From sequence record OK040907: DNA of 64,000 nt, one strand, 5' to 3'. The position numbers and the translations under genes were made by a program. How positions within the stretch are numbered: position 1 is the first letter of the stretch; each line of letters begins with the position of its first letter. The notes beneath the pieces are model-generated. The model had not been told where the DNA came from. It made no database searches and saw only the letters and a list, made by a program, of their open reading frames with translations. Below, in pieces: positions 15,606-33,818 of the stretch. The DNA is from Enterobacteria phage Ac3.

Positions 15606-16570
15606 TGTATTCTTTAGAGGAATTTAATAATCAAGCAATAAACGCAGACTTCCAACGTAATAATATGTTCAGCTGTGTTTTTGCTACAACTCCATCAACT
15701 AAAAGCTCATCGTTAATAAGCTCAATTAGTAACTTTGCTTATAATAACTTGGGTCTAAATTCAGATTGGTTGGGATTAACTCAAGGTGATATTAATCAGG
15801 GAATTACTACGCTAATTACCGCTGGCACACAAAAACTGATAAGAAAATCAGGGGTTAGTAAATATCTTATTGGTGCCATGAGTCAACGTACAGTTCAAAG
15901 TTTATTAGGCTCATTTACAGTTGGTACATATTTAATTGACTTCTTTAACATGGCATATAACTCATCTGGATTGATGATATATTCTGTAAAAATGCCAGAG
16001 AATAGATTATCCTATGAAACTGACTGGAACTATAATTCTCCTAATATTCGTATAACTGGAAGAGAATTAGACCCTTTGGTTATTTCATTTAGAATGGATT
16101 CAGAAGCTTGTAACTATCGTGCAATGCAAGACTGGGTTAACGCTGTTCAAGACCCAGTAACTGGATTGCGTGCTTTACCGCAAGATGTCGAGGCAGATAT
16201 TCAGGTCAATCTTCATTCTCGCAATGGATTACCACATACTGCGGTGATGTTCACTGGCTGTATTCCAATATCTGTGAGTGCTCCTGAGTTATCATATGAT
16301 GGAGATAACCAAATAACTACATTTGATGTTACTTTCGCTTATAGAGTCATGCAGGCTGGAGCAGTTGATAGACAAGCTGCCCTTGAATGGCTTGAATCTG
16401 CTACTATAAATGGTATTCAAAGCGTTCTCGGAAATAGTGGAGGTGTTACTGGACTATCTAATTCGCTTTCACGACTTAGTAGATTAGGGGGAACTGCAGG
16501 AAGCATTTCAAATATTAATACTATGACAGGAATTGTCAATTCGCAAAGTAAAATATTAGGAGCAATATAA
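15605..16570 (+). CDS. 54: baseplate tail tube initiator gp54
   Basis: 321-aa ORF, T4 gp54 length and position. Confidence 0.9.
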   Translation: MYSLEEFNNQAINADFQRNNMFSCVFATTPSTKSSSLISSISNFAYNNLGLNSDWLGLTQGDINQGITTLITAGTQKLIRKSGVSKYLIGAMSQRTVQSLLGSFTVGTYLIDFFNMAYNSSGLMIYSVKMPENRLSYETDWNYNSPNIRITGRELDPLVISFRMDSEACNYRAMQDWVNAVQDPVTGLRALPQDVEADIQVNLHSRNGLPHTAVMFTGCIPISVSAPELSYDGDNQITTFDVTFAYRVMQAGAVDRQAALEWLESATINGIQSVLGNSGGVTGLSNSLSRLSRLGGTAGSISNINTMTGIVNSQSKILGAI

Positions 16571-16574
16571 CAAT

Positions 16575-16604
16575 GGGGACCTTTCGGTCCCCATATTTTT
16601 ATTT
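16575..16604 (+). terminator. hairpin GGGGACC-TTTC-GGTCCCC plus T-rich tract after gene 54
   Basis: perfect 7-bp stem followed by ATATTTTTATTT. Confidence 0.6.
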
Positions 16605-16889
16605 ACGGAATGAAATAAAAGCAGCAACTGAAGCAACAGAGGTTTCTTCAATATAAACCTCAATTTTTACCGGAGCTTCTGACTCAAATTTACCTGTTAC
16701 TACACCTTGGAAAATACTTTCAGTCTGTTCTGGCTTTGAAAAATTTTCAGAAGGAAAAATTCCGAACTTTTTATCTGTTCCAAAAATTTTGATAAATTCA
16801 TCGTAAACTGCTTCATTGAAAGCGTTATCAGCGGGAATAACGCCTTCAACGACGAGTTCTTGACCTAAAAAGCGCAAAGAAGATTTCAT
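16599..16889 (-). CDS. small early protein downstream of an early promoter
   Basis: 96-aa ORF; GAGGAA Shine-Dalgarno and early promoter directly upstream. Confidence 0.6.
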   Translation of the reverse strand: MKSSLRFLGQELVVEGVIPADNAFNEAVYDEFIKIFGTDKKFGIFPSENFSKPEQTESIFQGVVTGKFESEAPVKIEVYIEETSVASVAAFISFRK

Positions 16890-16920
16890 TTTGTGTTCCT
16901 CATGTTATGTCAGTAAGACT

Positions 16921-16950
16921 ACTATAACACAACATGAGGGACTTGTAAAC
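16921..16950 (-). promoter_or_regulatory. T4-type early promoter (GTTTAC, 18-nt spacer, TATAGT)
   Basis: minus strand GTTTACaagtccctcatgttgtgtTATAGT; part of an exact 54-bp repeat also found at 32174..32227. Confidence 0.7.
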
Positions 16951-19007
16951 TACATTTTGAACTTTTTAGACATTCCGTTGATGTTAACCAAAGAAGCTAA
17001 GATTTGAGAAACTTCGTTTTCCTCTTCTTTTGATTCTTCTACAAGGAATTGATTAAATCCAGCCATTGGACGAACTTCACCAGTTTCCATTAGATGGTCG
17101 CCATCATATACTGATTCTTCTAATTGTTCAGAAGGAGGAACGATTGTACCTTCGATTAGATACTTGTTATAAGCAGTTTCTTTCATAAAGTAAGTACTTA
17201 CTTTATTAATCTTCAGTAAAATTCCACGTGGTAGAATAACTTCAGCTTCTGATGGAAATCCTGATAAATGACCTGGAACGATAACTTTAACTCGTTCAGC
17301 TCCTTTAATTACCATACCCACGCTAGTTTCAGCATCTTCATTAGCATATGTAGAATGACTACCCATATGCATCAAATCTTCTGCATCAACGGAACCTTCT
17401 CCTTCACCAGAAAATACTGCTCCGGAATTATCTAAGGCCATATAATTTTTACCATACTCACCAAAGATATTTGGTTTAAGTGATGTCGATACGAAGTTCT
17501 TGAAATAGAACATTTTATTTTCAATGTTATGACGCAAAGTTTTAAAAGTAACTTCTTGTCCACGGTAAAGTGTAGTTCCTGGAGGAAGAACTGAACCTTT
17601 AGCGAATGCAGAATCCAGCGTCTCAATATGTTTAATAGCTCGTTCCATATATTCTTCACGTGTAGAATCAGGTTTACCTAAAAGGAATGAGTTCATTTCA
17701 ACATACGAATCTGCGCAATAATCTTCAATTACATCAGACTCAGCCTGAGTCAATCCTTTTGGAGTTACTTCAGTGCTTGCATATTCATACGCCTGAGCAG
17801 CGGATTCATCAATTAATTTATAAATTCCATTCATTACAAATTGAATAATAGCTGTCTTTTCATCTGGTGTAGCTTTAGAACCTTTAACTAAATCATTGAT
17901 AATTTTCTTAATAACATCAAAACTATTAGAAATATTAATATCAGCAAGATCGCTTAAAATTTTATCAGTTTTGTAATTAAAGAAGTCTTTATTCTTTAAA
18001 TATTCCTGGGAACCTTGATATGATGTATCGCTCTGCAACTTGATAGATGGATCGCGTAAACGCGCATGGGCTAATGCAATATGATTTCGGAAACTTTCTA
18101 GTTCATAATCGTTAGATTTAAAACGAGAAGCACTTCTCATACCGCCGATAGCTCCTTTGCCGAAGTTTGAACCAATCTGAATAACGCCAGAGTTCATTGG
18201 TCCTTCTGCTTTATATACCGGAACTTTAGATTCAAATTCTTGATATTTCTTAGCAGCGAAGCTATCACCCTGAAGTGAAGCATCAACAGTAGAATATTGA
18301 GCTTGTGCTGCTAATCGACGACTAATTTTAGTTTTCTGAATAACAGCTTGATCCGTACGCTTATCATTTTCTAAAGCAATAGAAGCAGCAACTGCGACAG
18401 CTTTAGGAACAGCATTACCTGTTTTAACGTCTACATAAACATCACCGACTTTCGATTCAACTTTTGTGAATAACTCAGTTGAAATAGGAGGTACACCTGG
18501 AATGTCTTCTAAATTGGCATTTTTACGGTAAACCATAATATATGCATATTTCTTATCATAGTCCCAGATTTCCTTTAAAAGAACATATCGACCTGCTCCT
18601 TTAGTACGTACTAAACGGTCAGCAATAACTTGCATTTGACGAGCAGCGCCATTTGTTTTACTTTTTAGTACGCGGAATAGGCATGCATCAATTTTATACT
18701 GTTTCATTGTTTGAAGAGCAGTATCAAAAACCGCATTAATGACACCAATTGGATTTCCACCCAAGTTTTTAAGCTTAACTAACGATAATTTCTCATTAAC
18801 ACCTATCATTACGATATGCATCATTTTGTCGCCTGGCTTAACGTTTTTATTCGTATCACCGCCAGAGGTGTATGTACAAAATCGAAATCCAGGAAGAACG
18901 CTTTCTTCACCGGCTTGAATAGCAAAAATTTGAGGTATTTTATGCTTAGGATTTAAGTTAACAACCGGCGCCGAAGCGCCGTCAAATAATTCTGTAATAA
19001 GTTCCAT
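16950..19007 (-). CDS. Alt-like ADP-ribosyltransferase, paralog 2
   Basis: 685-aa ORF; N-terminus MELITELFDG; ART-like motifs YRGQ, FVSTS, EAEVILPRG (R / S-T-S / E-x-E). Confidence 0.85.
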   Translation of the reverse strand: MELITELFDGASAPVVNLNPKHKIPQIFAIQAGEESVLPGFRFCTYTSGGDTNKNVKPGDKMMHIVMIGVNEKLSLVKLKNLGGNPIGVINAVFDTALQTMKQYKIDACLFRVLKSKTNGAARQMQVIADRLVRTKGAGRYVLLKEIWDYDKKYAYIMVYRKNANLEDIPGVPPISTELFTKVESKVGDVYVDVKTGNAVPKAVAVAASIALENDKRTDQAVIQKTKISRRLAAQAQYSTVDASLQGDSFAAKKYQEFESKVPVYKAEGPMNSGVIQIGSNFGKGAIGGMRSASRFKSNDYELESFRNHIALAHARLRDPSIKLQSDTSYQGSQEYLKNKDFFNYKTDKILSDLADINISNSFDVIKKIINDLVKGSKATPDEKTAIIQFVMNGIYKLIDESAAQAYEYASTEVTPKGLTQAESDVIEDYCADSYVEMNSFLLGKPDSTREEYMERAIKHIETLDSAFAKGSVLPPGTTLYRGQEVTFKTLRHNIENKMFYFKNFVSTSLKPNIFGEYGKNYMALDNSGAVFSGEGEGSVDAEDLMHMGSHSTYANEDAETSVGMVIKGAERVKVIVPGHLSGFPSEAEVILPRGILLKINKVSTYFMKETAYNKYLIEGTIVPPSEQLEESVYDGDHLMETGEVRPMAGFNQFLVEESKEEENEVSQILASLVNINGMSKKFKM

Positions 19008-19010
19008 GAT

Positions 19011-21107
19011 TTATCCTTGAACGAACTTGTAAGGCATGTTTGTAATATCTATGCAAGACGCAATAATTCCAAGAGATGATTCTACTTTCTGTTTAACGTT
19101 TGATGAAACAAATGATGCAAAGTCAACTCTGTCTTCTATTTCAGTATCACCTGTCATTGCAACTACTTCACCGGTTTCCATTAAATGGTCTCCGTCATAG
19201 ATTACCGATTCGGTGAGCTCTTCCGTGGTCATAACTTCAGCTTGAATGAGTTTTGTATTATTAGATGTTGTTCCGTCATTATTAGAAGCATCAGTTATTT
19301 TATTAACTTTGACCATCAATCCACGCGGTAGAATAACTTCAGCTTCTGTTGCTATTCCGAGACTTCCTGGATATACAACATTAACTTTATGAGCTCCATC
19401 AATTGCCCATCCTATTTGAACTTTAACGTATTCAGGATTTTCTTTATACGCTCTTATTTCGTTTGGATTAATAGTTATTCCTTCTTCATTTTTATCAACT
19501 GTTAATTCATTGCGAGCTTCTGGTTCTAAAAGACCAATACCAGCATGTGTGATTCCAAAACGTCCAAAAATGATAGGAGTTAAAGAAGTAGATACAAAAT
19601 TTCTGAAGTAGAACACTTTATTTTTAACTAACGCTTCATATATAGGAGCAGTCATACTTTGAGCACGATAAACTGTAATGCCTTCTGGTATACGGTCACC
19701 ATTTTCAAAAGCTGAATCTAAGTTATTTATAGCAGATTCAATTTCTTTTTCACTCATTACATCATATCGTTCTGGATTGTAACGACCTAAAAGAAGATTA
19801 TTGATGTCAGTATATCCTGAACCACAATATTCTCTAATGCCACGCTTTTGTGATGGAGTATATTTAGAACCATCGCGGGCAATAGTAATATCAATCATTG
19901 GACCAGCACCAATTCCAGAAAAACTGTAAATCATTCGTTTGAGGAATTTAGTTTTTGCTGCGTTCCAGGAATTTTTAGTTATTTCTTCCCAGACTTCATC
20001 TGGTTGTCCTTTACGATTTTTATTATGATTAGCAAGCCATTTATCTTTATAATCTTCAAAGAATTGATTTACAGCTGCTGCGTATTTCTCTAAACATTTT
20101 ATTGAAGTAGTTGGTTCATTTTTAATTGCATTAAAAATTACTTCTTTAATTTTTTCTGAAACTTCACCGACTTGACTCATTGGAAAGAATTTATAATCAT
20201 AGTGAAGTTCATCTGCCGTTCCTTCAGCAATAATTTTTGCTGCCTTTGTTTTAGAAGCTAATGAATTAATTCCAATTTTCATTTCTTCTGCTTCGGGAAT
20301 TAAAGGTGCAGTAGCTGGTTTATTAAAATTAGCTGCTGTAGATTCATACTTCTGGAATAATTCACTTTCAAATCTAGAAGATTCCAATGACTGACTTTGT
20401 GCAATTGCTCTACGGGAAATTTTAACTTTAACGATTACGGCTTGGTCAGAACGTTTATCATTTTCTTGTGCAATAGATGCAGCAATTGCCTCATTTTTGG
20501 TTACTTGAGCTCCAGTATCTTTATTGATATAAACATCACCGACCTTCGATTCAACTTTAGTAAAGAGCTCGGTGCTAATTTCTGGAACTCCTGGAATGTC
20601 TTCTAGTGATACATTTTTACGATGTATAAGAATATATGCATACTTTTTATCGTAATCCCAGAGTTCCTTAAGAAGGACGTATCTGCCACCTGAACGACTG
20701 CGGATGAGTCTATCAGCAATAAGTTGAATTTGTCGAGCTTGACCTGCGGTTTTAGACTTAAGAATACGAAGCATGCAGGCATCAATTTTATATTGACGCA
20801 TTGTTTGCATTGCAACAGTAAAAACTGAATTGATATAATTAATCGGGCTTGGACCAAGACCTTTTAATTTAGCAATTGAACCTTTAGCAGTTAATGTAAA
20901 AGGAACAATATGCATCATTTTATCGCCCATCTTTAAATCACGATTAGTATCACCTCCAGATGTATAGGTACATAAACGAAAGCCTGGTTGTTCAATTGCA
21001 TCATCAACATGAACTGAAAAAATTTGTGGTATTTTCTTCTTTGGATTTAAGTTTGTAATCGGAAGAGTAGTATCTTCGTCAAATAATTCTGTAATGAGTT
21101 CCATCAT
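19011..21107 (-). CDS. alt: Alt-like ADP-ribosyltransferase, paralog 1
   Basis: 698-aa ORF; N-terminus MMELITELFDEDTTLPITNLNPKKKIPQIF; motifs YRAQ, FVSTS, EAEVILPRG; late promoter upstream; adjacent to gene 30 as T4 alt. Confidence 0.88.
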   Translation of the reverse strand: MMELITELFDEDTTLPITNLNPKKKIPQIFSVHVDDAIEQPGFRLCTYTSGGDTNRDLKMGDKMMHIVPFTLTAKGSIAKLKGLGPSPINYINSVFTVAMQTMRQYKIDACMLRILKSKTAGQARQIQLIADRLIRSRSGGRYVLLKELWDYDKKYAYILIHRKNVSLEDIPGVPEISTELFTKVESKVGDVYINKDTGAQVTKNEAIAASIAQENDKRSDQAVIVKVKISRRAIAQSQSLESSRFESELFQKYESTAANFNKPATAPLIPEAEEMKIGINSLASKTKAAKIIAEGTADELHYDYKFFPMSQVGEVSEKIKEVIFNAIKNEPTTSIKCLEKYAAAVNQFFEDYKDKWLANHNKNRKGQPDEVWEEITKNSWNAAKTKFLKRMIYSFSGIGAGPMIDITIARDGSKYTPSQKRGIREYCGSGYTDINNLLLGRYNPERYDVMSEKEIESAINNLDSAFENGDRIPEGITVYRAQSMTAPIYEALVKNKVFYFRNFVSTSLTPIIFGRFGITHAGIGLLEPEARNELTVDKNEEGITINPNEIRAYKENPEYVKVQIGWAIDGAHKVNVVYPGSLGIATEAEVILPRGLMVKVNKITDASNNDGTTSNNTKLIQAEVMTTEELTESVIYDGDHLMETGEVVAMTGDTEIEDRVDFASFVSSNVKQKVESSLGIIASCIDITNMPYKFVQG

Positions 21108-21127
21108 ATCCTCTCTAGTGTTTATTC

Positions 21128-21135
21128 TATTTATA
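21128..21135 (-). promoter_or_regulatory. T4-type late promoter TATAAATA (minus strand) upstream of alt
   Basis: reverse complement of TATTTATA about 20 nt upstream of the alt start. Confidence 0.6.
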
Positions 21136-21156
21136 AAATTAAAGGCCCGAAGGCCT

Positions 21157-21345
21157 TTAATAATCTATTGGTAATAGAGTACGATATATTTCAAACTTTG
21201 GACCTTTTTCATAAGCATCAAAAGTTTCTGTGAATTTATTATAAGCATATGCATCTATAAATTCAATCATGATTTGCGATACAGAAGTAGAAACATCTCC
21301 ACCTTCTTTTTGAGCCACGACAATTGTTTCTAAGTAAGCTTTCAT
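21157..21345 (-). CDS. small hypothetical protein between gene 30 and alt
   Basis: 62-aa ORF with stop/start overlap to gene 30. Confidence 0.5.
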   Translation of the reverse strand: MKAYLETIVVAQKEGGDVSTSVSQIMIEFIDAYAYNKFTETFDAYEKGPKFEIYRTLLPIDY

Positions 21346-22805
21346 AAACCAGTTACCTCATGAAAATCGCCAAATACATCTTCGAACGTATTAGCTTTAG
21401 TTTTATCTTCACGTAAACGAATCGCAATTGGAAGAAATAATTTAACGTAATCGGTGCGGCCATCAGATTTTAACCAACCGTTGCATTCGCACTCTAGAAT
21501 TTTTCCAATATAATAATTTTGGTTTTCCATAATGCGAGTACGGTCAAGTTCATGCGATTTTACACCAGCTTTATCTTTTAAGCCTGAACCAGCATTTACT
21601 TTAATTTTTCCACACTCTGACTCAAGAATAAATCCACCCGCTTTAGTAGGGTCTTTACGGTGAGGATAAATTCCTACAATTTTTAAATCAACATCAATTA
21701 CTTCTTTAAATTTATAAAGATTTTTTGAACGAGCATTTTCCCATAATCCATCGATATTTTTGAGAATAATACCTTCAAGACCTTGGTCAATATACTTTTT
21801 GTAAATTACCTTAGCTTCATCTAGGTTATTTACTACTTGGTTTTCAATTAAAATTACTTTATCATAGCCTGATGTCATTTGTTCTAGTTTAGAAAAACGT
21901 ACATCATATTTTAAACGAAACGCTGGAAGACCATATATTTCTACTAATGGAACATAGTCCCAGACCTGAAACTTCATGCATTGTGCTTCTTTTTCAGAAA
22001 TGGTTCCCTTTAAAGATTTATTAGCGATTCCATTAGAAGTAGTACGTGATTCAGCTACTTCGGCGAATTCTTTAGCTTTACTAATTTCAGGATAAGCATC
22101 AAAAAGAAAATCTAGGCCTTCTGGTTCCTTTTCAACTTGCTCATGGTATACCAATTCGCCATCAATTAACACACCTTCTGGATGAATCTGGCGAGCTTCT
22201 GCAGTCATTTTGATTAACTCTTCCTTGAGAAGATCTAATCCTAGATATTCATTACCAGCTCGTGATAAAAGACGAACATCATCTAATTCATCACCTCTGA
22301 CTTCAGCAAAGCACCGAGCTCCATCAGCTTTTAATTGGGCAAAGGCTGGAAATTTGATATTCTTATTAATGCCTTTTTCATCATAAGAACTTGCCAGCAT
22401 TTGAGGTTGTTCAGGAATTAAACCTGGCCAAACTTTGTTTGCAATAGATACTGATGCACCGCATTCAAGGTCTCGCATCATCACCCGACGCAAAACTTCA
22501 ACATCATCTTTTTTACCGTCAGCAATATATCCAGTTAATTCCTCAATTGCCGCATTTCCGGTCAATTTCCGAGTAGCTAACGTGAATTCAATGAAGTCAA
22601 GCATATCGGTAAGAGTCAACATTCCAAAACTCTGGGTAGCAATACCAGGTTTAGGCCATTTCTTGATATAATACTGTAACCCACGAGAATAAGTCAGACG
22701 ATATACTCGTTTAAGCAATTCATTATCTTTATTCTTTTCAAGAATTGCTTGCTTCTGCTTAGTTGAACCAATAGATGCTATTTCGTTCAGAATTTTAAGA
22801 ATCAT
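21342..22805 (-). CDS. 30: ATP-dependent DNA ligase gp30
   Basis: 487-aa ORF (T4 length); adenylation motif KADGARC (KxDG). Confidence 0.93.
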   Translation of the reverse strand: MILKILNEIASIGSTKQKQAILEKNKDNELLKRVYRLTYSRGLQYYIKKWPKPGIATQSFGMLTLTDMLDFIEFTLATRKLTGNAAIEELTGYIADGKKDDVEVLRRVMMRDLECGASVSIANKVWPGLIPEQPQMLASSYDEKGINKNIKFPAFAQLKADGARCFAEVRGDELDDVRLLSRAGNEYLGLDLLKEELIKMTAEARQIHPEGVLIDGELVYHEQVEKEPEGLDFLFDAYPEISKAKEFAEVAESRTTSNGIANKSLKGTISEKEAQCMKFQVWDYVPLVEIYGLPAFRLKYDVRFSKLEQMTSGYDKVILIENQVVNNLDEAKVIYKKYIDQGLEGIILKNIDGLWENARSKNLYKFKEVIDVDLKIVGIYPHRKDPTKAGGFILESECGKIKVNAGSGLKDKAGVKSHELDRTRIMENQNYYIGKILECECNGWLKSDGRTDYVKLFLPIAIRLREDKTKANTFEDVFGDFHEVTGL

Positions 22806-23071
22806 TGTTCATCCTTTAGAGTTTGGTTTACAGCTCTATTATAAATCAATTCATCATTAAGCTCAGTCAAAGACCTGTGGTACGTGGTTCTAACTTTATT
22901 TCCTTGCATCCAGTGCTTGACGTAAATGAAACCTTGCTCTACACATTTTTTAAAAATTCGTTCGTCTTTTTGAGCTCGAAATTCTGGATTGCATCTAAAA
23001 AATTGATTTACGTGACCGTAATCACGTGTAGTATTACCTTCATTTTCATAAATAGTGTGAACGACAAACAT
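22802..23071 (-). CDS. hypothetical protein (gene 30.x cluster)
   Basis: 89-aa ORF with overlapping stop/start. Confidence 0.55.
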   Translation of the reverse strand: MFVVHTIYENEGNTTRDYGHVNQFFRCNPEFRAQKDERIFKKCVEQGFIYVKHWMQGNKVRTTYHRSLTELNDELIYNRAVNQTLKDEQ

Positions 23072-23907
23072 TAGAATGCTCCTTGGAAAATATTATCACC
23101 ACCAGTAGGTCTATTATACAAATACTCTATGCCACCAGGTTTAATATAGTTCCATGTCTGAAACGGATGTGTCTGATATGGATGATATAGATTATAAGGA
23201 TTAAATCCAGGAGTTCTCCAGGTAGTGTTCCAAGGAAAAGAATCATTTTTAATCATCTTTTCAATTACATCTTTTATAGCTTTTTCACTATCAAAACTTT
23301 CTTTATTTTCCTTCGATGGAAAAAGCTTATTCTCTACATCATTCCATGTATAAACTCGCTGCGCAGTTTTTGGAATACTGTCACGCTCTCCTCGAGCCAT
23401 CCAATAAACAGGAACATTTAATATTTCACTCGCGTGATCGCAGTGGTGAGCGAGATCGTCAATATAACAAATTACGTTATATTTCTCTTTTGCCTTTTTG
23501 AACAACTCTTCTTTTGAAGAATCATGACCACACATCAATACTTCTGAGAAGGCACCAGGAAAAAGAGCATTCAAATTAAATTGACGATTTAGCAGAGCGT
23601 CAATAGAATCACCCAATGCTGTAACAGCTACAAAATTATAATCTTCTTTTAATTTGTTAATTACACACAGGGCATCTTTATACGGAGACAAGTAACGAAT
23701 AAAATCTGAACGATTGTATTTTTCAATTAACTTGACACCAAGTTCTTCATCGCAATTAAAGAGCTTACCAGGAGAAATAAATTTTTCGTCCTGAATCATT
23801 TTTAAAATATGTTCCAACGGAAGATTATATTTTTGAGCAAAATAAGGAAGACCTGATTGCCAGCTTAAACATACACCATCAATATCAGTCAAAATAGTAG
23901 GCTTCAT
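23071..23907 (-). CDS. HAD-like hydrolase family protein (gene 30.x cluster)
   Basis: 278-aa ORF; N-terminal LTDIDGV resembles HAD motif I (DxDG). Confidence 0.55.
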   Translation of the reverse strand: MKPTILTDIDGVCLSWQSGLPYFAQKYNLPLEHILKMIQDEKFISPGKLFNCDEELGVKLIEKYNRSDFIRYLSPYKDALCVINKLKEDYNFVAVTALGDSIDALLNRQFNLNALFPGAFSEVLMCGHDSSKEELFKKAKEKYNVICYIDDLAHHCDHASEILNVPVYWMARGERDSIPKTAQRVYTWNDVENKLFPSKENKESFDSEKAIKDVIEKMIKNDSFPWNTTWRTPGFNPYNLYHPYQTHPFQTWNYIKPGGIEYLYNRPTGGDNIFQGAF

Positions 23908-24368
23908 AGAGAGTCTCTTAATAGGTTTAACACATCAATAAATTCAGCTTCGGTTAGTATTGTATCATCTTTTGTTAGACTACTAGCCATGCTGTGCTTC
24001 AAAACTTTTCCTTTCGAGGCTTGTAATGCATCACGAAAGCCCTTGTTTTGAATCGCTGCCTCAAAATACGCATTTGTGTATAATTCTTTCCACGCTGGAG
24101 AGTATCTTGAAAACGGAACTCCGAGCCAGAAGAGGGTCCCACGGTCCTGAGCTCTAGCATAAGACCTTCCAGCTTGTTGGGCGGCAAGCCCGGATAACCC
24201 AAATACACGACGTTGCTGTTCAACATTTTTCACCTTACATCCTTGGAGAAATCCTTCAAGACCTCCAAATTGGATACCATCCATAACAAAAGGCCATTGG
24301 GCGAAATTACTTAATGCACACGATGGCCATCTAAAATTGCTTCTAATCTCTAACTCAGACATTTTCAA
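23904..24368 (-). CDS. YbiA/NADAR-like protein (gene 30.x cluster)
   Basis: 154-aa ORF; LSNFAQWPFVMDGIQF…GFLQGCK pattern resembles the YbiA/DUF1768 (NADAR) signature. Confidence 0.5.
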   Translation of the reverse strand: MKMSELEIRSNFRWPSCALSNFAQWPFVMDGIQFGGLEGFLQGCKVKNVEQQRRVFGLSGLAAQQAGRSYARAQDRGTLFWLGVPFSRYSPAWKELYTNAYFEAAIQNKGFRDALQASKGKVLKHSMASSLTKDDTILTEAEFIDVLNLLRDSL

Positions 24369-24561
24369 TACTTATAATTTCAACATCAGCCCAATGACCA
24401 TAGCAAGGAAGACGAAATTCAACTGGCCAGTTAGGGTCCTTTTCTAATATAATAGACTTAACTTGTGGTTCTTCATGTTCATCAGTATATGGATTTTTAT
24501 CTGTTACTTTATATGTGACCTTAATGTACTGAATTCCAAAAATCTTATTAATTATATTCAT
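24355..24561 (-). CDS. hypothetical protein (gene 30.x cluster)
   Basis: 68-aa ORF, tightly packed. Confidence 0.5.
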   Translation of the reverse strand: MNIINKIFGIQYIKVTYKVTDKNPYTDEHEEPQVKSIILEKDPNWPVEFRLPCYGHWADVEIISIENV

Positions 24562-24755
24562 ACTAATTCCTTTAATCCGTAAATAGGAGATAATTCATCA
24601 CCCATACGAAGGTCTTCATTTCCATCTACCCAGGAAACAATATAAGCCTCTTTTATTTGAACACCACTCCATTTAAATGGAGGTAGAACCTTAGAAATTA
24701 ATCCAGGTATACCAACTCCCTTTAATTCAACAGTTTGACCTAAAAAGAATTTCAT
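24558..24755 (-). CDS. hypothetical protein (gene 30.x cluster)
   Basis: 65-aa ORF, tightly packed. Confidence 0.5.
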   Translation of the reverse strand: MKFFLGQTVELKGVGIPGLISKVLPPFKWSGVQIKEAYIVSWVDGNEDLRMGDELSPIYGLKELV

Positions 24756-25042
24756 TAAAACCTCATCTGAAAACCATGCGATTTAACATTACCACCGCCA
24801 ATATCAGAAATGTTAATTTCACTCGCAATTGAAGGGTCAATGTCAATTTCGCGATTGAGTTTAGTGATAGCTAAAGTATCGTGCCCATTTACTGTACGGA
24901 ACTCTAGAGGACAAACCACATCAACGTAGTTTTTAATCGATTCACTGGTAGGCTGCAAATGAGCAGGAAGGTCTTTAGGCGCCTTTGAGAAAACAACTTC
25001 ACAGAAATTTTTGCGGGTATCAAAATAAGTAGTCATAAACAT
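24755..25042 (-). CDS. hypothetical protein (gene 30.x cluster)
   Basis: ORF track 24755..25093; start moved to internal ATG (MFMTTYFD) preceded by GAGGAAAA; hairpin GGGGC-CGAA-GCCCC lies just upstream. Confidence 0.5.
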   Translation of the reverse strand: MFMTTYFDTRKNFCEVVFSKAPKDLPAHLQPTSESIKNYVDVVCPLEFRTVNGHDTLAITKLNREIDIDPSIASEINISDIGGGNVKSHGFQMRF

Positions 25043-25082
25043 AGTATTTTCCTCAGTAAGGGGCCGAAGCCCCTGTTTTATT

Positions 25083-25448
25083 TTAAATATCAAATTCGTT
25101 AAGAACTACATCAAAGATTGCTTCAAGATGCTCAGGTTTAGCTCTGTTACTCAAAATATGACGAATCCAAGTTTTAACCAGAAGCTTACGATTAGCGCCA
25201 TTCCAGCAAGGATGGGTCCCTAAATCGCGTTGACGAAAATCATCATCCAGAGCGATTTTGAAGTTTGAACCTTCCATTGTGATTGAAACCGTGATGCCAT
25301 TTTCAAATCGCATATAAACGTAATTAGGAGTCATATACTGTTCAATTTCGCATACTGATCCATTTTGATGTTTCCAAAGGCAAATAGTATCAATAGAACC
25401 TGCAATACCATTAGAAACATATTTACGTTCAAAGTTGATGTAGTTCAT
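25083..25448 (-). CDS. hypothetical protein (gene 30.x cluster)
   Basis: 121-aa ORF downstream of an early promoter. Confidence 0.55.
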   Translation of the reverse strand: MNYINFERKYVSNGIAGSIDTICLWKHQNGSVCEIEQYMTPNYVYMRFENGITVSITMEGSNFKIALDDDFRQRDLGTHPCWNGANRKLLVKTWIRHILSNRAKPEHLEAIFDVVLNEFDI

Positions 25449-25485
25449 TTTTATTCTCCGAGATGTTTAATTGCGGTACAGGTAT

Positions 25486-25514
25486 ATAATATCATATCCT
25501 GTACCAAAGTAAAC
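25486..25514 (-). promoter_or_regulatory. T4-type early promoter (GTTTAC, 17-nt spacer, TATTAT)
   Basis: minus strand GTTTACtttggtacaggatatgaTATTATATA upstream of the 121-aa ORF. Confidence 0.6.
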
Positions 25515-25516
25515 AA

Positions 25517-25849
25517 TTATTTTACTACTTTCCAGTGCTTCATGTCAAGTTTACCAACTTTTTTCATCTTCTCAATCAAACGTTCGGCACGTTGGCGAGC
25601 TGTAACATAATACCATTCGCCTAATTCATTTTGTTCAATTTTTCCAACGATTACTGTATTCAATTCATAAATCCAACCAGTAAAGAAATTATGAACTTGA
25701 ATTGTAAAGGTGAAATCTGTTCCCATACCTTCTGTTGTTTCTACTTCAATAATATCACCTTCAACTGCCATTAAGAACCACATAGTTTCATCATATTTAC
25801 CATTGAAGCATTTAGTCTTAACTGCAGCGTTCAGATTAATCGTTTTCAT
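25517..25849 (-). CDS. hypothetical protein (gene 30.x cluster)
   Basis: 110-aa ORF. Confidence 0.55.
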   Translation of the reverse strand: MKTINLNAAVKTKCFNGKYDETMWFLMAVEGDIIEVETTEGMGTDFTFTIQVHNFFTGWIYELNTVIVGKIEQNELGEWYYVTARQRAERLIEKMKKVGKLDMKHWKVVK

Positions 25850-25959
25850 TTTATTCTCCTTTGTTTGTGTAAGATAATACTATCACAAAGGAACCATATT
25901 GTAAACAACTTTGTGTAATCTTTGGAAAATAAAAAAGGACTCCCGAAGGAGTCCTCAAC

Positions 25960-26178
25960 TTATGCTTTCTGCTTACCAAAACGAGAAGCATCATCTCGAA
26001 GAACCGCACGTGCTCGGCGCATGATCTTCTCAACAGTTTGATTGATACGAGAGTTCGACCCACGCTTGTAGCCAGCGCGTTTAGAATCACCAACTTTCTT
26101 TTCAACTGCTTTCTTTGCTTTAGCTTGTTTTGCCATTATAAATTCTCTTTTAAATGAAAATGCAGGACTTATTGGCAT
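25960..26178 (-). CDS. small highly basic protein (gene 30.x cluster)
   Basis: 72-aa ORF MAKQAKAKKAVEKKVGDSKRAGYKRG…, Lys/Arg-rich. Confidence 0.5.
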   Translation of the reverse strand: MPISPAFSFKREFIMAKQAKAKKAVEKKVGDSKRAGYKRGSNSRINQTVEKIMRRARAVLRDDASRFGKQKA

Positions 26179-26379
26179 TGCCTGCGCAAGCCCTCAAGGG
26201 GAACATAGGTTTTGGATATTTAACGACAGGATAACCATAAACCCGTCATCATTCACATTCAAGAGGTACACCATAAAACTGCCGGGGTCTTAAAACTATA
26301 ATGATTCGCAAATCATTAATCAGACAGTTCGATGGCTCCTCGATTTTAGCTCACACTAAGGCAGTGAATCTCCAATAAA

Positions 26380-26628
26380 TTACTTCAGTGTTACCACAAA
26401 GTGACGAACTGCTTTTCGTGCAGCAGAAGCCAGAGGCTTAGCATACTTAAGTTCATCTTTTTCCTGAAGCTCAGCAGCTAATGCAGTTTGAGCAGGATTC
26501 AGATGTTTGAAATAACGCAGGATTTCAAGAGCTTCGGCTTCAACATCAATAGATGCGCCATAGTTTTCGTGACCATTATTCCATGCGTTTCGTTGCAGTT
26601 CAAGAGCGTGTTGTAATTGTTTAATCAT
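26380..26628 (-). CDS. rIII: RIII lysis inhibition accessory protein
   Basis: 82-aa ORF (T4 rIII length) between the 30.x cluster and gene 31. Confidence 0.7.
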   Translation of the reverse strand: MIKQLQHALELQRNAWNNGHENYGASIDVEAEALEILRYFKHLNPAQTALAAELQEKDELKYAKPLASAARKAVRHFVVTLK

Positions 26629-26775
26629 TTAAAAATTCTCGTTAGAGATTAAAACTCGGTAGTCACGTTCTTCTGAATTTCATCTTCTTTCGACAGATCT
26701 CTCAGTTGTAGACTACCACATAGAATTGTTCGGTTAACTTATTATTCCGACACCCAATTCATATTATTATTTATA

Positions 26776-27111
26776 TCACTTATAAAGACACGGAATAGCT
26801 TTATAGTGACAAGTAACGAATTTTTGTTTAATTTCTTTTGGCTGCTTAAGACCCAGAGCTACAAAAGGATGCGGAACATTTCGAATTTGACCAACTGGAA
26901 GAGAAGTCAAATCACCAACTTCGCAAAAACCTTCAGGAACATCAGGACCAACAGAGTGAACTACACACAGTTCAGGAACTTCACCTTGAACACGTTTACC
27001 GATAATAAGTCCTGATTCTGTAACTTCTTCATCACCGGCTTGTGCGGGTTCAGAAACTAAAATAACATATTCACCGACAGCACGAATTGGTAGCTGTTGT
27101 ACTTCAGACAT
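26776..27111 (-). CDS. 31: co-chaperonin gp31 (GroES analogue)
   Basis: 111-aa ORF, T4 gp31 length; N-terminus [29 protein letters not shown]. Confidence 0.9.
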
Positions 27112-27167
27112 CGTTTTTCCTTTTTGTTAACAGATGAATTAATAATAACAAATAATTCTTAAAGCAT

Positions 27168-27476
27168 TTATTTACCAATAAATTGGAGTAAATGCTCAAC
27201 TTTCATACCATTAACAGAAATCAATTTGTCAATAGAAAAACCTCGCCATGCACCAAGTTCAACATCAAATATTGGAATCATGTCAGTAGATTCTTTCCGA
27301 GTCGATTCAGTCAATTTACCAGTTTGCATGGTTGGCATAAAGTCTGCGTCACGAGTACCTTTCATAGTACGAATAGTACCATCAGACTTTTCAAAAACTA
27401 CGTTTGAAACACCCATGGACAGTTTAGTTTTCAAAATTTCACGAATTGCTACTTTTTGTTCAGTCGTCAGTTTCAT
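27168..27476 (-). CDS. hypothetical protein (31.x-like)
   Basis: 102-aa ORF between gene 31 and cd. Confidence 0.55.
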   Translation of the reverse strand: MKLTTEQKVAIREILKTKLSMGVSNVVFEKSDGTIRTMKGTRDADFMPTMQTGKLTESTRKESTDMIPIFDVELGAWRGFSIDKLISVNGMKVEHLLQFIGK

Positions 27477-27713
27477 TTATTTACCTATCACAGTTTTAAT
27501 ATGAGTTGTTCCACGTTCTTTAAGAGTGGAAAGCAATTTTTGGCATTTTTCTAAATCAGATTTCCAACTATATGGTCTATCTATACTAGTCCAATCAGTT
27601 TTATAATACTGCTTCCATTTAGAGAAAAAATATTTCTTATACTCTACAGCAAATGAGATGTTCTCGTTAGAATAAGAACTAATTGCTGTGAGCTTTACCA
27701 AACGAAATTTCAT
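27477..27713 (-). CDS. hypothetical protein (31.x-like)
   Basis: 78-aa ORF between gene 31 and cd. Confidence 0.5.
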   Translation of the reverse strand: MKFRLVKLTAISSYSNENISFAVEYKKYFFSKWKQYYKTDWTSIDRPYSWKSDLEKCQKLLSTLKERGTTHIKTVIGK

Positions 27714-28294
27714 TATTCACCACAGAATTCGTTGATATTTTCCCAGTTTAACTTATTCAAGTTTTTCTTAGGAACATTAAACACTTCAATACCTGCATTT
27801 CGCAGAATATCATCCCAGCCAGGTTTATTTTTATCGTATGTTTCGCAATAAACCAGTTTTTTAATACCAGATTGAGCTATCGCTTTTGCACAATCCGGAC
27901 ATGGAGAAAGTGTTACATACATAGTAGCACCTTCAATAGAAGAACCATTTCGTGCAGCAAACAAAATTGCATTTAGTTCAGCATGAATTTCATTTTTAGA
28001 CGACCATTCAGAGTGAGCGCTCCGGTGTTCTTTTGCCAAGACAAAACGATCAGTTGAACCAAATGATACACATTCGGGCTTATGACCTTGGATGATAGTA
28101 TGTTTAGGTTTATTTAGCAACCAACCTTGCTCAGCAGCATAATCACAACAGTTCACACCCCCTGCGGGGGAACCATTATACCCAGTAGAAATAATACGTC
28201 CATTCTTTTCAATTACTGCTCCTACCTTCCAGGAGCAACATTTTGATTCCTGCGATACTAAATATGCAATTTGAAGTACTGTACTCGCTTTCAT
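27713..28294 (-). CDS. cd: dCMP deaminase
   Basis: 193-aa ORF (T4 Cd length); zinc-ligand motifs HAE and PCxxC (HAELNAILFAA…SPCPDCAKAI). Confidence 0.92.
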   Translation of the reverse strand: MKASTVLQIAYLVSQESKCCSWKVGAVIEKNGRIISTGYNGSPAGGVNCCDYAAEQGWLLNKPKHTIIQGHKPECVSFGSTDRFVLAKEHRSAHSEWSSKNEIHAELNAILFAARNGSSIEGATMYVTLSPCPDCAKAIAQSGIKKLVYCETYDKNKPGWDDILRNAGIEVFNVPKKNLNKLNWENINEFCGE

Positions 28295-28961: not shown

Positions 28962-29232
28962 AACGAATATCGCCTTTGATAACTAACTCAGCATCAAGAC
29001 CGAATACTACAATGATATGCGCGGAACCTGGATACAGCGTAATGGCAACAGAATCCACCTGGTCTGGAAGCAAAGTGTTCAATACATGAGTCACTTGAGC
29101 ATGGATTCGAAGTTCGGCTGCGTTATCAAGCTTTTCAAACATATTATTAGCGATAATTTGACTAAACACTACTTCTACAATTTTAGAATAAGTCGGAAAC
29201 ATATTTACCTCACATAATTTTCTTCGAGCCAA
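28927..29232 (-). CDS. hypothetical protein (cd.x cluster)
   Basis: 101-aa ORF. Confidence 0.5.
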   Translation of the reverse strand: MARRKLCEVNMFPTYSKIVEVVFSQIIANNMFEKLDNAAELRIHAQVTHVLNTLLPDQVDSVAITLYPGSAHIIVVFGLDAELVIKGDIRFESQTAEFKAI

Positions 29233-31322: not shown

Positions 31323-31672
31323 TTAGAAAGGTCCTGGATGTCTTCTGCGAACTTGTTGAAGGAGTTGTTGATTTGTTTTTCAACCAATCCTGGCTTACGA
31401 GCCACCACATCCGCCTTCTTTGCATCTTTGCGCAGTTTTTCATTTTCATGCTCAATAGCAGCAATCGCCTCACGATTTTTATTATTCATCGCATCAATAT
31501 AATTATACTGAATTCGCAAATTATTTAATGCTAAGGCGTTTTCATTGGCCGTTTTTGTAATTTCAGTAACTGATGTTTCTAATCTTTCTACCTTATTTTT
31601 TAAAATAATAGATGTTCCGCCAAATGCTATTACAAGTAATAGCAATCCAGCTGTAAAATTACTTACATGCAT
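31319..31672 (-). CDS. predicted membrane-anchored coiled-coil protein
   Basis: 117-aa ORF; N-terminal hydrophobic segment GLLLLVIAFGGTSIIL. Confidence 0.5.
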   Translation of the reverse strand: MHVSNFTAGLLLLVIAFGGTSIILKNKVERLETSVTEITKTANENALALNNLRIQYNYIDAMNNKNREAIAAIEHENEKLRKDAKKADVVARKPGLVEKQINNSFNKFAEDIQDLSK

Positions 31673-32169
31673 AAAGTTTTAATAACCTCTATAATATCGT
31701 CTTGAGAAAGACCGTTAATTAAAATATGATGTTCAACCGGAGATTTAGAAATTTTAAAGCACGCCGCAACATCTTCTGCCATATCCGATGCGCTACGATT
31801 TGGATTACTAATTCCAAGACGATGCTTTCCCGTCAAAGGATTAACGATGATATAGCATTTGCAGCTATTGATGTGAACATTAGGTTGAGTCTGATTAATG
31901 AATACTTCACAATCGTATTTCGCAAACTGATTTTCTAAAAAGACTTTCATCTCCTCAACCGCATCAGGAAGCATATCACGGGCTTGCTCAAGACGACGAT
32001 TTCGATATTCTTTAATGGTCGTTTTCCGCTTGACTTGCTTAGCTAAATCTTTCTTAAGATCGGTGATATATCCAACTCGACGATTTCCTTTGAATACAGA
32101 AATCCCATCTGTAGTATCACCGTATGCTTCAACGACCATTTCAGTAGTAATAAGCTGCAAATCCATCAT
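31663..32169 (-). CDS. alc: Alc, inhibitor of host transcription
   Basis: 168-aa ORF (T4 Alc 167 aa) next to rnlA; early promoter upstream. Confidence 0.7.
   Translation of the reverse strand: MMDLQLITTEMVVEAYGDTTDGISVFKGNRRVGYITDLKKDLAKQVKRKTTIKEYRNRRLEQARDMLPDAVEEMKVFLENQFAKYDCEVFINQTQPNVHINSCKCYIIVNPLTGKHRLGISNPNRSASDMAEDVAACFKISKSPVEHHILINGLSQDDIIEVIKTLCM

Positions 32170-32230: not shown

Positions 32231-33818
<1,588 letters not shown>

Follow-up and report, generated by a model that had tools for sequence, protein, structure and literature searches.

Among the regulatory units described in T4-like phages, those closest to the locus considered here are the promoter-early stem-loop (PeSL) cassettes (Arbiol et al., 2010, PMC2839356; Comeau et al., 2014, PMC4122927), whose promoters of the T4/PST type follow the consensus TTTACW-N17-TAYWAT (PMC4122927). 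T4 also offers a precedent for gating by a hairpin that has a promoter inside it, at genes e, soc, 49 and I-TevI (PMC3014915). According to reviews, how early protein synthesis is shut off has yet to be explained in full.

A 54-bp sequence that occurs twice in the DNA analysed here, each time immediately before a gene, shares features with both of these systems. The preferred reading, to which a probability of about 0.6 is assigned, is that the two 54-mers are paralogous T-even early-promoter cassettes of the PeSL kind, with hairpin gating and an old copying event both part of the explanation. As found, the cassette is a well-behaved case of an already known regulatory unit of the T4 family and matters little; the translational gating predicted by RNA folding appears to be the only possibly new point, the cassette otherwise fitting the published PeSL class.

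Two identical copies of a 54-bp unit

The window, meaning the whole stretch of 64,000 nucleotides that was analysed, corresponds to bases 104395-168394 of phage RB51, whose annotation is the source of the gene names. An exact search of the window finds the 54-mer TCCTCATGTTATGTCAGTAAGACTACTATAACACAACATGAGGGACTTGTAAAC at 16897-16950 and at 32174-32227 with 0 mismatches, as the initial annotation had claimed, and an independent repeat search returns the same pair as family D13, 100% identical and with a spacing of 15277. There is no third match in the window with up to 3 mismatches allowed. Extended to the whole RB51 record, the search again places the cassette in 2 places (blastn, E<=1e-3), and related phages carry the pair too. 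No match is expected by chance, and 0 were seen in 100 shuffles; together with the presence of the pair in hundreds of independently sequenced genomes, this rules out chance or artefact.

On the minus strand, copy 1 is preceded by ...AAAATGTA and followed by ACACAAAATG, and copy 2 is preceded by ...ACTAAGCT and followed by CTTTATGATG. Identity ends sharply at both borders, and the overlap with coding sequence amounts to a single stop-codon base. The initial annotation had raised the concern that careful comparison might reveal mismatches or a longer duplicated coding segment around the repeat. Neither is seen: all 54 positions agree, and because the flanks diverge at once at both ends, the repeat is not surrounded by any longer coding duplication, a possibility ruled out by the break in identity exactly at the cassette borders.

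Each copy is packed into an intergenic gap of 60-64 bp between genes of the same (minus) strand, and the unit does lie, as first described, directly upstream of two unrelated genes. Copy 1, which by exact match and RB51 annotation comprises a core early promoter, 5′ leader and Shine-Dalgarno sequence, serves alt.-3 (16599..16889, minus strand; 96 aa; present in the ORF list and in the RB51 annotation) and is preceded by a 685-aa Alt-like ADP-ribosyltransferase paralog (“alt.-2”; 16950..19007, minus strand). Copy 2, with identical promoter, leader and Shine-Dalgarno sequence, serves alc (31663..32166, minus strand), which encodes an inhibitor of host transcription, and is preceded by rnlA (RNA ligase 1; 32231..33355, minus strand). 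The first cassette base of copy 1 on the minus strand, the G at 16950, also completes the TAG stop codon of the alt paralog, and copy 2 begins 3 nt after the TAA stop codon of rnlA. In alc there is a second in-frame ATG at 32169, the start region reading ATGATG. Alc is an early product (PMC2988021), and alt.-3 of T4 is non-essential and of unknown function, and mutants in which its C-terminus is extended evade the CmdTAC defence system (PMC11618068).

Several features lie near copy 1. The alt ORF occupies 19011-21107, and the tandem duplication of alt and its paralog (families D3, D4, D6, D12 and D18) is a feature separate from the cassette pair. A motif search locates the T4 late-promoter motif TATAAATA at 21128..21135 on the minus strand, 20 nt upstream of the alt start codon; judged by this match, it is a likely source of late read-through RNA across copy 1. 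Downstream, a terminator-like GC-rich hairpin at 16573..16594, recorded without a strand, is situated between the convergent genes 54 and alt.-3 and likely marks the 3′ end of the alt.-3 transcription unit.

Promoter and leader

On the minus strand, each copy reads TTTACA-17 nt-TGnTATAGT, followed by a leader of about 17 nt and a GAGG ribosome-binding site. The promoter scan places the −35 hexamer TTTACA at 16944..16949 in copy 1 and at 32221-32226 in copy 2, and the −10 hexamer TATAGT, preceded by TGT, at 16921..16926 and 32198-32203, respectively. Both copies agree with the sigma-70 consensus at 10/12 positions and have a TG extended −10, which is consistent with the minus-strand early promoter and leader that had been proposed. 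The −35 site was also correctly located as GTTTAC, but the 18-nt spacer given with it is a matter of counting: aligned to sigma-70, the element is TTTACA, beginning one base later, with a spacer of 17 nt. From the usual distance of ~7 nt to the −10 box, transcription is predicted to start at ~16914 in copy 1 and ~32191 in copy 2, on the minus strand. The Shine-Dalgarno GAGG (cassette positions 50-53) resides at 16898-16901 and 32175-32178, with the ATG 8 nt after it at alt.-3 and either 5 or 8 nt after it at alc.

PeSLs also have an AT-rich tract ahead of the −35 element; here the 30 nt upstream of it are ~70% A+T at both loci (counted by eye), barely more than the ~65% A+T typical of T4-type genomes, with A-tracts that fall in coding DNA. 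The GTTTAC...TAnnnT architecture is found 13 times in the window, where 3.4 occurrences are expected, and 12 of these 13 are on the minus strand. Other early promoters of this GTTTAC type had been described as similar but non-identical, and they are at most ~79% identical to one another (families D1/D2), so that the exact pair does stand out among them. TATAAT replaces TATAGT in 8/24 alt.-3 copies of other phages. The cassette conforms to the T4/PST PeSL promoter consensus except for the G at position 5 of the −10 box (PMC4122927). In phage ASO78A, the annotated promoter near alc is a late-like TATAAAAA motif inside rnlA and is not the cassette promoter. A literature search for transcription-start or expression data on these two promoters returned nothing specific.

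Distribution and age of the cassette pair

By blastn, 499 records contain a full-length copy, in ~2 places per record, and both copies occur in about 500 Tequatrovirus records, including those of T4 (where the match is 53/54), T2 and RB14. Searches of IMG/VR with the Alc and Alt.-3 proteins yielded 5 loci each, and a set of GenBank phage records was used instead for the comparison table, which covers 24 genomes and 48 copies. Across these genomes the two copies within one genome differ by 0-6 bases, and no fixed difference separates the alt.-3 locus from the alc locus. The perfect identity of RB51 recurs in CAM-21, in ECO4 and in one IMG contig. The suggestion of a recent duplication does not fit this distribution, the identity in RB51 being one end of the 0-6 base range, and overall divergence in the genus being 1-5%. 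Judged from sequence comparison, the cassette pair is an old, genus-wide feature and not the product of a recent event in the RB51 genome.

Outside Tequatrovirus, RB69 and VR26 lack the near-identical pair. RB69 has dissimilar promoters at its alt.-3 and alc loci; in VR26 the alt.-3 promoter shares the CATGAGGAAnACAAAATG leader end, and alc has no promoter before it. In Mosigvirus JS09, a −10/leader segment with ~37/40 aligned bases matching precedes a third gene, ndd.1. Mobility of the cassette, as initially suggested, is supported by these three genomes only at a deep time scale. The pair, absent in Mosigvirus and Gaprivervirus and fixed in Tequatrovirus, represents a clean, datable case of promoter-leader copying between genes and supports the PeSL idea of regulatory cassettes moving as modules. 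Under the preferred reading, one locus would have been overwritten by a copy of the other in the Tequatrovirus stem lineage, and the copies would since have drifted slowly and mostly independently under strong constraint. On the basis of ~10 nt of leader similarity in two outgroups, alt.-3 was probably the donor and alc the recipient. PeSLs are associated with hyperplastic regions and indels and act as recombination sites (mini-circles). Next to copy 1, the alt paralog is truncated in T4 and in pSe_SNUABM_01 by a deletion that stops ~20 bp short of the cassette on its upstream side, and no recombinant junction was observed inside the cassette.

It is possible, if doubtful, that independent drift has been supplemented throughout the genus by concerted evolution, that is, by occasional ectopic conversion between the copies within one genome or between co-infecting phages, a scheme compatible with the preferred explanation. 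The gene conversion proposed in the initial annotation finds a footing here in the lack of fixed differences between the loci and in three haplotypes common to both, one of them with two derived bases (A32 and T34). Likewise, 4/6 polymorphic alc sites share alleles with alt.-3 (hypergeometric p = 0.018 over 54 sites), but this overlap is not significant if ~30 sites are taken as variable (estimate, p about 0.02-0.18), and the shared changes are all transitions at structurally free sites (loop, bulge and wobble positions). About 50 bp, as Singer and colleagues are said to have found in 1982, is near the minimum homology for efficient recombination in T4. Recombination between PeSLs has been obtained experimentally in RB49 and phi1 (PMC2839356). 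Against conversion, sharing a genome does not make two copies more alike, the mean differences being 2.29 within and 2.41 between genomes in the set of 24; the within-genome excess of similarity is not significant in permutation (p = 0.28), nor was it among 18 genomes (p = 0.21). The paralogs have also diverged just as far as two initially identical copies drifting independently would be expected to, the orthologue diversities at the two loci averaging ~2.2 in the same 24 genomes.

A recent, RB51-specific duplication or conversion, in which one copy was overwritten by the other, is very unlikely. It would account for the 54/54 identity and for the A that RB51 has at cassette position 16 in both copies, where G is usual at alc (19/24) and at alt.-3 (17/24). 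However, the pair is genus-wide, and each RB51 haplotype is found elsewhere with a different partner: that of alc in 4 other sampled phages whose alt.-3 copies differ, and that of alt.-3 in RB14 and wV7, whose alc copies differ. Of the 24 genomes, 5 have the A16 allele of alc and 3 have the alt.-3 reference allele, and allele frequencies predict the identical combination in ~0.6/24 genomes, where 1 is observed; identical copies of the G type are present in three other genomes. The perfect identity of RB51 can arise simply as a combination of two alleles, each present separately in other phages, so that a striking exact match has a mundane population-genetic explanation.

A hairpin predicted to bury the ribosome-binding site

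RNA folding resolves the inverted repeat into a 14-bp stem, with G·U pairs, and a 4-bp apical helix. The initial annotation had placed an inverted repeat across spacer and leader, and this holds, although the 9 bp assigned to it fall short of the 14 bp plus 4 bp obtained by folding. Within the hairpin lie the −10 box and the predicted start site, with GAGG buried in its 3′ arm. The 5′ arm (16926..16939 in copy 1 and 32203-32216 in copy 2, minus strand) is located in the promoter spacer, upstream of the predicted start, and the 3′ arm (16898..16911 and 32175-32188, minus strand) is the leader including GAGG. Because the 5′ arm precedes the predicted start, both arms would be present only in RNA that reads through from upstream.

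The fold energy is −23.4 kcal/mol for copy 1 (z = −4.2) and −27.8 kcal/mol for copy 2 (z = −4.5), and 0/200 shuffles were as stable as the cassette hairpin; RNA begun at the cassette promoter is predicted to be unstructured, at 0 and −1.8 kcal/mol. In a 293-nt read-through RNA, the predicted cost of opening the segment from the Shine-Dalgarno sequence to the AUG is 14.1 kcal/mol at copy 1 and 16.9 kcal/mol at copy 2, whereas 4.3 and 4.4 kcal/mol suffice in RNA begun at the cassette promoter. Across the 82 ORF starts of the window the median cost is 5.4 and the 95th percentile 12.4 kcal/mol, and the read-through values rank 4th and 2nd, respectively; in all 17 natural haplotypes the cost stays within 10.7-17.6 kcal/mol. 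An Rfam E-value scan of 16000-33500 found nothing at either copy, its two sub-threshold matches lying elsewhere.

Natural variation in the stem is for the most part compatible with pairing. Outside the position of the terminal pair (cassette 40), the 3′ arm is invariant in the 48 copies but for a single G50A, which is matched by C15T, and the substitutions in the stem mostly preserve wobble pairing (C13U, C15U, A16/G16). The one fully compensatory change converts C15-G50 to U-A in SHFML-26, with U·G intermediates in other phages. As a covariation test this is weak, resting on one compensatory pair, with the observed score reached by 76/500 shuffles.

The geometry is neither universal among the early promoters of the window nor confined to the cassette. 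Occlusion is predicted in only 4/12 of them, and two, at 25906 and 61657, bury the Shine-Dalgarno sequence in the same way with stems of unrelated sequence. Outside Tequatrovirus, the opening costs in read-through and own RNA are 3.2 and 3.8 kcal/mol at VR26 alt.-3, 3.1 and 1.8 kcal/mol at JS09 ndd.1, 4.3 and 1.6 kcal/mol at RB69 alc, and 11.8 and 5.5 kcal/mol at RB69 alt.-3. As this occlusion is not a conserved trait beyond Tequatrovirus, the hairpin is possibly a lineage-specific accident of the cassette.

Proposed mechanism and alternative roles of the stem-loop

Under the preferred reading, host sigma-70 RNA polymerase would fire both copies immediately after infection, as their match to the consensus suggests, and this early firing would yield short-leader mRNAs for alt.-3 and alc. 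In the promoter spacer, on whose sequence sigma-70 places no constraint, a 14-nt arm would be encoded that can pair with the leader and Shine-Dalgarno sequence. RNA begun upstream, such as late alt transcripts and prereplicative nrd-denA-rnlA transcripts, would hold both arms and fold into the hairpin that buries the ribosome-binding site, whereas RNA from the cassette's own promoter, without the 5′ arm, would be open. Translation of alt.-3 and alc would then likely depend for the most part on their own immediate-early transcripts, with read-through RNA being a poor template. Ribosomes on the upstream gene stop 0-3 nt before the cassette, and unfolding of the hairpin or re-initiation could weaken the block.

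A role of the stem-loop in transcription or RNA stability, and not in translation, is rather unlikely. The element might act as a PeSL-type attenuator or terminator of transcription from upstream, protect the 3′ ends of the alt-paralog and rnlA mRNAs, or provide a signal for RNase III or RNase E. The stem-loops of phi1 PeSLs reduce expression of a downstream lacZ about as strongly as a strong terminator does (PMC2839356), the stem at the alc copy extends to ~18-21 bp, and the window promoters at 28850-28934 and 40775-40855 have stems that flank the −10 box clear of the Shine-Dalgarno sequence. However, a canonical intrinsic terminator was rejected at both copies, where the terminator scan finds no site and no U-tract follows the stem (AACACAAAAUG, ACUUUAUGAUG). 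The stems are rich in A/U and G·U pairs in comparison with the G/C-rich stems tested in phi1, and the 3′ arm coincides exactly with the Shine-Dalgarno sequence, a position that is not required of a terminator.

Less probable still is an inverted repeat without function, a sequence accident that hitch-hiked with the copying and has been kept by the youth of the genus and by the constraints on the −10 box and Shine-Dalgarno sequence. The weak covariation, the low genus-wide divergence and the absence of occlusion both at RB69 alc and in VR26 and JS09, whose leaders are related, are all in keeping with this idea. Pointing the other way, fold z-scores range from −4.2 to −4.9; changes in the 5′ arm, which lies in spacer sequence unread by sigma-70, are biased towards those that preserve wobble pairing and include the compensatory pair; and the recurrence of Shine-Dalgarno burial at 25906 and 61657 involves unrelated stems.

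To our knowledge, no candidate protein is known that could bind the inverted repeat as a DNA operator. That a dimeric phage or host protein shuts off both promoters in this way is scarcely credible, for although the symmetric arms bracket the −10 box and reviews call early-promoter shut-off unexplained (PMC2988021; PMC3014915), the inverted repeats at other early promoters are unrelated in sequence, leaving no common operator, and natural variants keep RNA-type G·U pairing and not DNA symmetry.

Translational gating may extend beyond this pair. Tentatively, the cassettes could belong to a T-even class in which a spacer-encoded anti-Shine-Dalgarno arm licenses translation only from the gene's own promoter, constituting an “early-only”, copyable 54-bp unit; within this early-only reading, the gene 30.8 promoter (25849-25906) and the one at 61599-61657 would be independent inventions of the design. 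With ribosome-binding sites predicted to be buried in read-through RNA at alc, at alt.-3 and at two further early genes, T4 may have a cheap, testable means of restricting the synthesis of some immediate-early proteins to the first minutes of infection.

Comparison with known systems

The cassette resembles the PeSLs in being a compact intergenic unit that begins at or near the stop codon of the upstream gene, between ORFs of the same strand, and in containing what its consensus predicts to be a strong early promoter of the sigma-70 (T4/PST) type. It also has a stem-loop that overlaps the −10 box, finishes at its 3′ end with the Shine-Dalgarno sequence and the start codon of the gene that follows, and is repeated in the genome before unrelated genes. 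It differs in that its copies, at 54/54, are far more alike than PeSLs usually are, and in that they flank 15.3 kb with essential genes (DNA ligase, gene 31), so that the mini-circle or deletion route of PeSLs would be lethal here. The stem, too, is distinct, being A/U-rich, lacking a U-tract and pairing with the Shine-Dalgarno sequence; it surrounds the −10 box, whereas the PST figure legend puts the stems just upstream of the promoter (PMC4122927). The PeSL papers treat termination and never translation (PMC2839356; PMC4122927).

With the T4 early promoters (Pe) of the “UP/−35/TGn/−10” class (PMC2988021), the cassette shares a GTTTAC-type −35 element, a TG extended −10 and a near-consensus −10 box, as well as the strand of the prereplicative genes and a position upstream of alc, a known early product. 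In contrast to that class, its UP-like A-tracts fall outside the duplicated 54 bp and differ between the loci.

The likeness to e, soc, 49 and I-TevI concerns the arrangement of the arms, the cassette 5′ arm being upstream of the internal start and the Shine-Dalgarno sequence in the 3′ arm, as predicted. In both cases long transcripts would be closed and promoter-proximal ones open, the modelled cassette start (position ~37) lying 3′ of the 5′ arm. Gating has been proven experimentally for those genes and is predicted for the cassette. A motif search finds no late-promoter motif TATAAATA within the cassette, which is not a member of the late-gated set: in the known cases the internal promoter is late (gp55) and expression late-only, whereas that of the cassette is of the early sigma-70 type and would be early-only. 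If true, such early-only gating would mirror, with the timing reversed, the late-only scheme of e, soc, 49 and I-TevI, with transcriptional and translational timing both carried in 54 bp that would have been copied from alt.-3 to alc in the Tequatrovirus ancestor and have a related leader at Mosigvirus ndd.1.

Structure of the duplicated promoter-leader cassette

The 54-bp sequence at 16897-16950 (copy 1) recurs at 32174-32227 (copy 2) with 0 mismatches in an exact-match search of the window, which is itself 100% identical to the RB51 record, and repeat finding independently recovers the pair as a family of its own (D13). The window makes up the final 64 kb of Enterobacteria phage RB51, a Tequatrovirus, with window position 1 at genome position 104395. 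There is no third copy in the window at ≤3 mismatches and no chance match to the 54-mer in 100 shuffles; the exact duplicate described in the initial annotation is correct and far beyond chance. Comparison of the flanks indicates that the repeat is not part of a longer duplicated coding segment, as identity breaks off sharply at either border. Read on the minus strand, the cassette (GTTTACAAGTCCCTCATGTTGTGTTATAGTAGTCTTACTGACATAACATGAGGA) extends from the -35 element to just past the Shine-Dalgarno GAGG, whereas the upstream A-tracts and the spacers between the Shine-Dalgarno sequence and the AUG (ACACAAA vs CTTT) are unlike at the two loci. Thus, the duplicated unit is exactly a core promoter, a leader and a ribosome-binding site.

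In both copies, a consensus scan identifies TTTACA-17 nt-TATAGT with a TG extended -10 element, matching at 10 of 12 positions, as the top-scoring site in each scanned region. The early promoter and leader first proposed for this strand are well supported by these sequence features, and the promoter site is the one originally picked, although its -35 had been counted one base early (GTTTAC with an 18-nt spacer). The GTTTAC...TAnnnT architecture, which published T4 early promoters fit (PMC2988021), occurs at 13 sites in the window against 3.4 expected, 12 of them on the minus strand. As had also been noted, the remaining GTTTAC-type sites (families D1/D2) are similar but not identical: they have only consensus positions in common and show ≤~79% mutual identity, making copies 1 and 2 an outlier pair.

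Copy 1 fills a 60-bp gap between a full-length Alt-like ADP-ribosyltransferase paralog (16950-19007, minus) and alt.-3 (16599-16889, minus; 96 aa), and copy 2 fills a 64-bp gap between rnlA (32231-33355, minus) and alc (31663-32166, minus). Alt.-3 is non-essential and of unknown function, and C-terminal-extension mutants of the T4 protein escape the CmdTAC defence system (PMC11618068); Alc is made early and terminates transcription on host DNA that contains cytosine (PMC2988021). The alt product is noted in the annotation as a virion protein. RB51 carries two tandem full-length Alt-like genes (685 and 698 aa; 16950-21107, minus), visible as direct repeats spaced 2094-2097 bp apart and 70-94% identical (families D3, D4, D6, D12 and D18), and the second is reduced to fragments (alt.-1/alt.-2) in T4 and Salmonella phage pSe_SNUABM_01. 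On the upstream side, the T4 deletion stops ~20 bp short of the cassette, and from there the alt.-2 frame enters the promoter (16649-17034 of the T4 locus, L003). Between the convergent genes 54 and alt.-3 lies a GC-rich 9-bp hairpin, ATGGGGACC-loop-GGTCCCCAT (16573-16594), with a plus-strand T-run; this is a probable terminator, either shared or bidirectional.

Predicted burial of the ribosome-binding site

With upstream sequence included in the RNA, each copy forms a 14-bp stem (positions 12-25 with 40-53 of the cassette, counted on the minus strand) capped by a 4-bp apical helix, so that the inverted repeat reported initially is present but larger than the 9 bp assigned to it. Folding energies are -23.4 (copy 1) and -27.8 kcal/mol (copy 2), with z-scores of -4.2 and -4.5, and none of 200 shuffles is as stable as either hairpin. 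The -10 box and predicted start site sit between the hairpin arms, with GAGG at the foot of the 3′ arm, and RNA initiated at the predicted +1 is without the 5′ arm and unstructured (0 and -1.8 kcal/mol). The ensemble free energy required to make the 16 nt from Shine-Dalgarno to AUG single-stranded is predicted to be 14.1 (alt.-3) and 16.9 kcal/mol (alc) in a 293-nt read-through RNA, begun upstream and containing both arms, and 4.3 and 4.4 kcal/mol, respectively, in RNA begun at the cassette's own promoter. Over 82 ORF starts in the window, this opening cost has a median of 5.4 and a 95th percentile of 12.4 kcal/mol, with alc ranking 2nd and alt.-3 4th; it is predicted to be kept at 10.7-17.6 kcal/mol in all 17 natural haplotypes. 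The highest predicted occlusion in the window (20 kcal/mol, 293-nt context) is at the ORF start at 60937 (minus).

Read-through into copy 1 could plausibly come from a late-promoter motif, TATAAATA, at 21128-21135 (minus), 20 nt ahead of the alt start. A T4 late-promoter motif with one mismatch, TATAAAAA, resides within the 3′ end of rnlA (32253-32260, minus), ~30 nt upstream of copy 2, and in phage vB_EcoM_ASO78A it carries a late-like promoter annotation; if active, its transcripts would carry both hairpin arms.

The same geometry is predicted at two other GTTTAC-type promoters, those at 25849-25906 (minus; -35 at 25906), ahead of gene 30.8 (110 aa), and at 61599-61657 (minus), ahead of a 37-aa membrane-like ORF. 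In each, the spacer would pair with the promoter's own Shine-Dalgarno sequence in read-through RNA, raising the opening cost over that in own RNA by 9.3 and 14.0 kcal/mol, respectively (fold z-scores -3.2 and -3.9). The stems are unrelated in sequence, and thus the design appears to have arisen independently; it was not found at the remaining eight early promoters of the window. Just upstream of the gene 30.8 promoter (25921-26004, minus) is a sub-threshold Rfam match to the Rhizobiales sRNA Atu_C8 (31.4 bits vs a gathering score of 50; E = 0.006), most likely due to chance. Elsewhere, a GGGGCC-GAAG-GCCCC-type hairpin with a T-rich tail behind it occurs three times (25046-25083, 62795-62832 and 63024-63061; family D9) and looks like a reused intrinsic-terminator module, and diverged in-frame direct repeats of 42-68 nt (ATxACTCCTAAAAAG...; families D5/D7) inside a large gene (46595-47545, plus) presumably encode a repeated peptide motif of a tail-fibre protein.

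The case for a selected RNA structure in the cassette is suggestive but not strong. The usual 5′-arm substitutions preserve pairing by wobble (C13U and C15U opposite G; A16/G16 opposite U), and there is one full compensatory change, C15-G50 to U-A in SHFML-26, for which three further phages show U.G intermediates. Cassette position 40, in the terminal pair, is the only other variable position of the 3′ arm, and pairing holds in 96.7% of cells. The covariation score of the hairpin is reached by 76 of 500 column shuffles. Occlusion is moderate at the alt.-3 leader of RB69 (Mosigvirus) and is not conserved at RB69 alc or at the related leaders of Gaprivervirus VR26 and Mosigvirus JS09.

Age of the pair

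A blastn search with a 66-bp intergenic query returned full-length matches in 499 phage records, nearly all at two places each, and T4 has both copies, with 1 of 54 positions differing. Extracted from 24 Tequatrovirus genomes, the two copies differ within a genome by 0-6 bases (mean 2.29), being identical in RB51, CAM-21, ECO4 and one IMG contig (4/24), and are not significantly closer than alc and alt.-3 copies compared across genomes (mean 2.41; permutation p = 0.28). Diversity among orthologous copies amounts to 1.3 differences for alc and 3.1 for alt.-3, and the mean of ~2.2 is the paralog distance predicted by independent drift from an identical ancestor. Among these genomes no difference between the loci is fixed, and the loci have three haplotypes in common. 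From such comparisons we conclude that, at the root of the sampled genus, the copies were identical or almost identical, and that their perfect identity in RB51 calls for no recent event.

Gene conversion between the copies, another process offered initially, may be ongoing but is not required. Four of the six sites that are polymorphic at alc also vary at alt.-3, and with the same alleles (p = 0.018 were all 54 sites equally free), but each of these four shows a transition in a loop, bulge or wobble position, and the overlap is no longer significant if only ~30 sites are free to vary. Recent duplication is not borne out, as the pair is nearly universal in the matching records and the RB51 haplotypes occur separately elsewhere, that of alc in four other sampled phages and that of alt.-3 in RB14 and wV7, with a different partner copy in each.

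Movement of the cassette at deeper time

RB69 has early promoters in both gaps, which have only consensus features in common with each other and with the Tequatrovirus cassette. The VR26 alt.-3 promoter has a leader end (CATGAGGAAAACAAAATG) very like that of the Tequatrovirus alt.-3 copy (CATGAGGAACACAAAATG), whereas VR26 alc lacks a promoter and follows a small ORF. This combination weakly suggests that the cassette is native to the alt.-3 locus and that it replaced an earlier alc promoter on the Tequatrovirus stem lineage. The small ORF, annotated as 'similar to T4 Alc', takes the place of rnlA and the promoter (17996-18201 of the VR26 locus, L033), and thus gene order at the alc junction differs between genera.

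In JS09 and ~75 related records, a related segment from -10 box to AUG precedes a third, unrelated gene, ndd.1 (1484-1543 of the JS09 locus, L025). Aligned with the alt.-3 type, it shows ~37 matches over 40 bases and a single 3-nt gap, with the ACACAAAATG tail included; its promoter spacer is unlike, and its -10 box is enclosed by a 12-bp hairpin that differs from that of the cassette. Thus, transfer of this family of promoter-leader modules from gene to gene has occurred more than once, and the cassette mobility envisaged initially holds at deep time, as judged from ndd.1 and the outgroups, but not for anything recent.

Relationship to known regulatory elements

The cassette fits the structural definition of the promoter-early stem-loop (PeSL) of T4-like phages (Arbiol et al., 2010; Comeau et al., 2014). 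It is intergenic, begins at the upstream stop codon, has what appears to be a strong early promoter of the T4/PST type, and contains a stem-loop that overlaps the -10 box, with a Shine-Dalgarno sequence and start codon at its 3′ end. No Rfam family was found at either copy. In the PeSL papers, a terminator or attenuator function is ascribed to the stem and the elements are regarded as sites of recombination; translation is not discussed (Arbiol et al., 2010; Comeau et al., 2014). Neither copy has a U-tract after the stem or a called terminator-like site, and so the canonical PeSL terminator role is not obviously applicable.

The gating geometry predicted here is that of T4 e, soc, 49 and I-TevI (PMC3014915). 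In those genes, however, a late internal promoter goes with late-only translation, whereas the internal promoter of the cassette would be early; the cassette is thus not a member of that set and would work alike with opposite timing. Overall, the cassette is a new example, in RB51, of an already known type of element, which is present in T4 as well, and the predicted early-only translational gating may be the one part of it that is novel.
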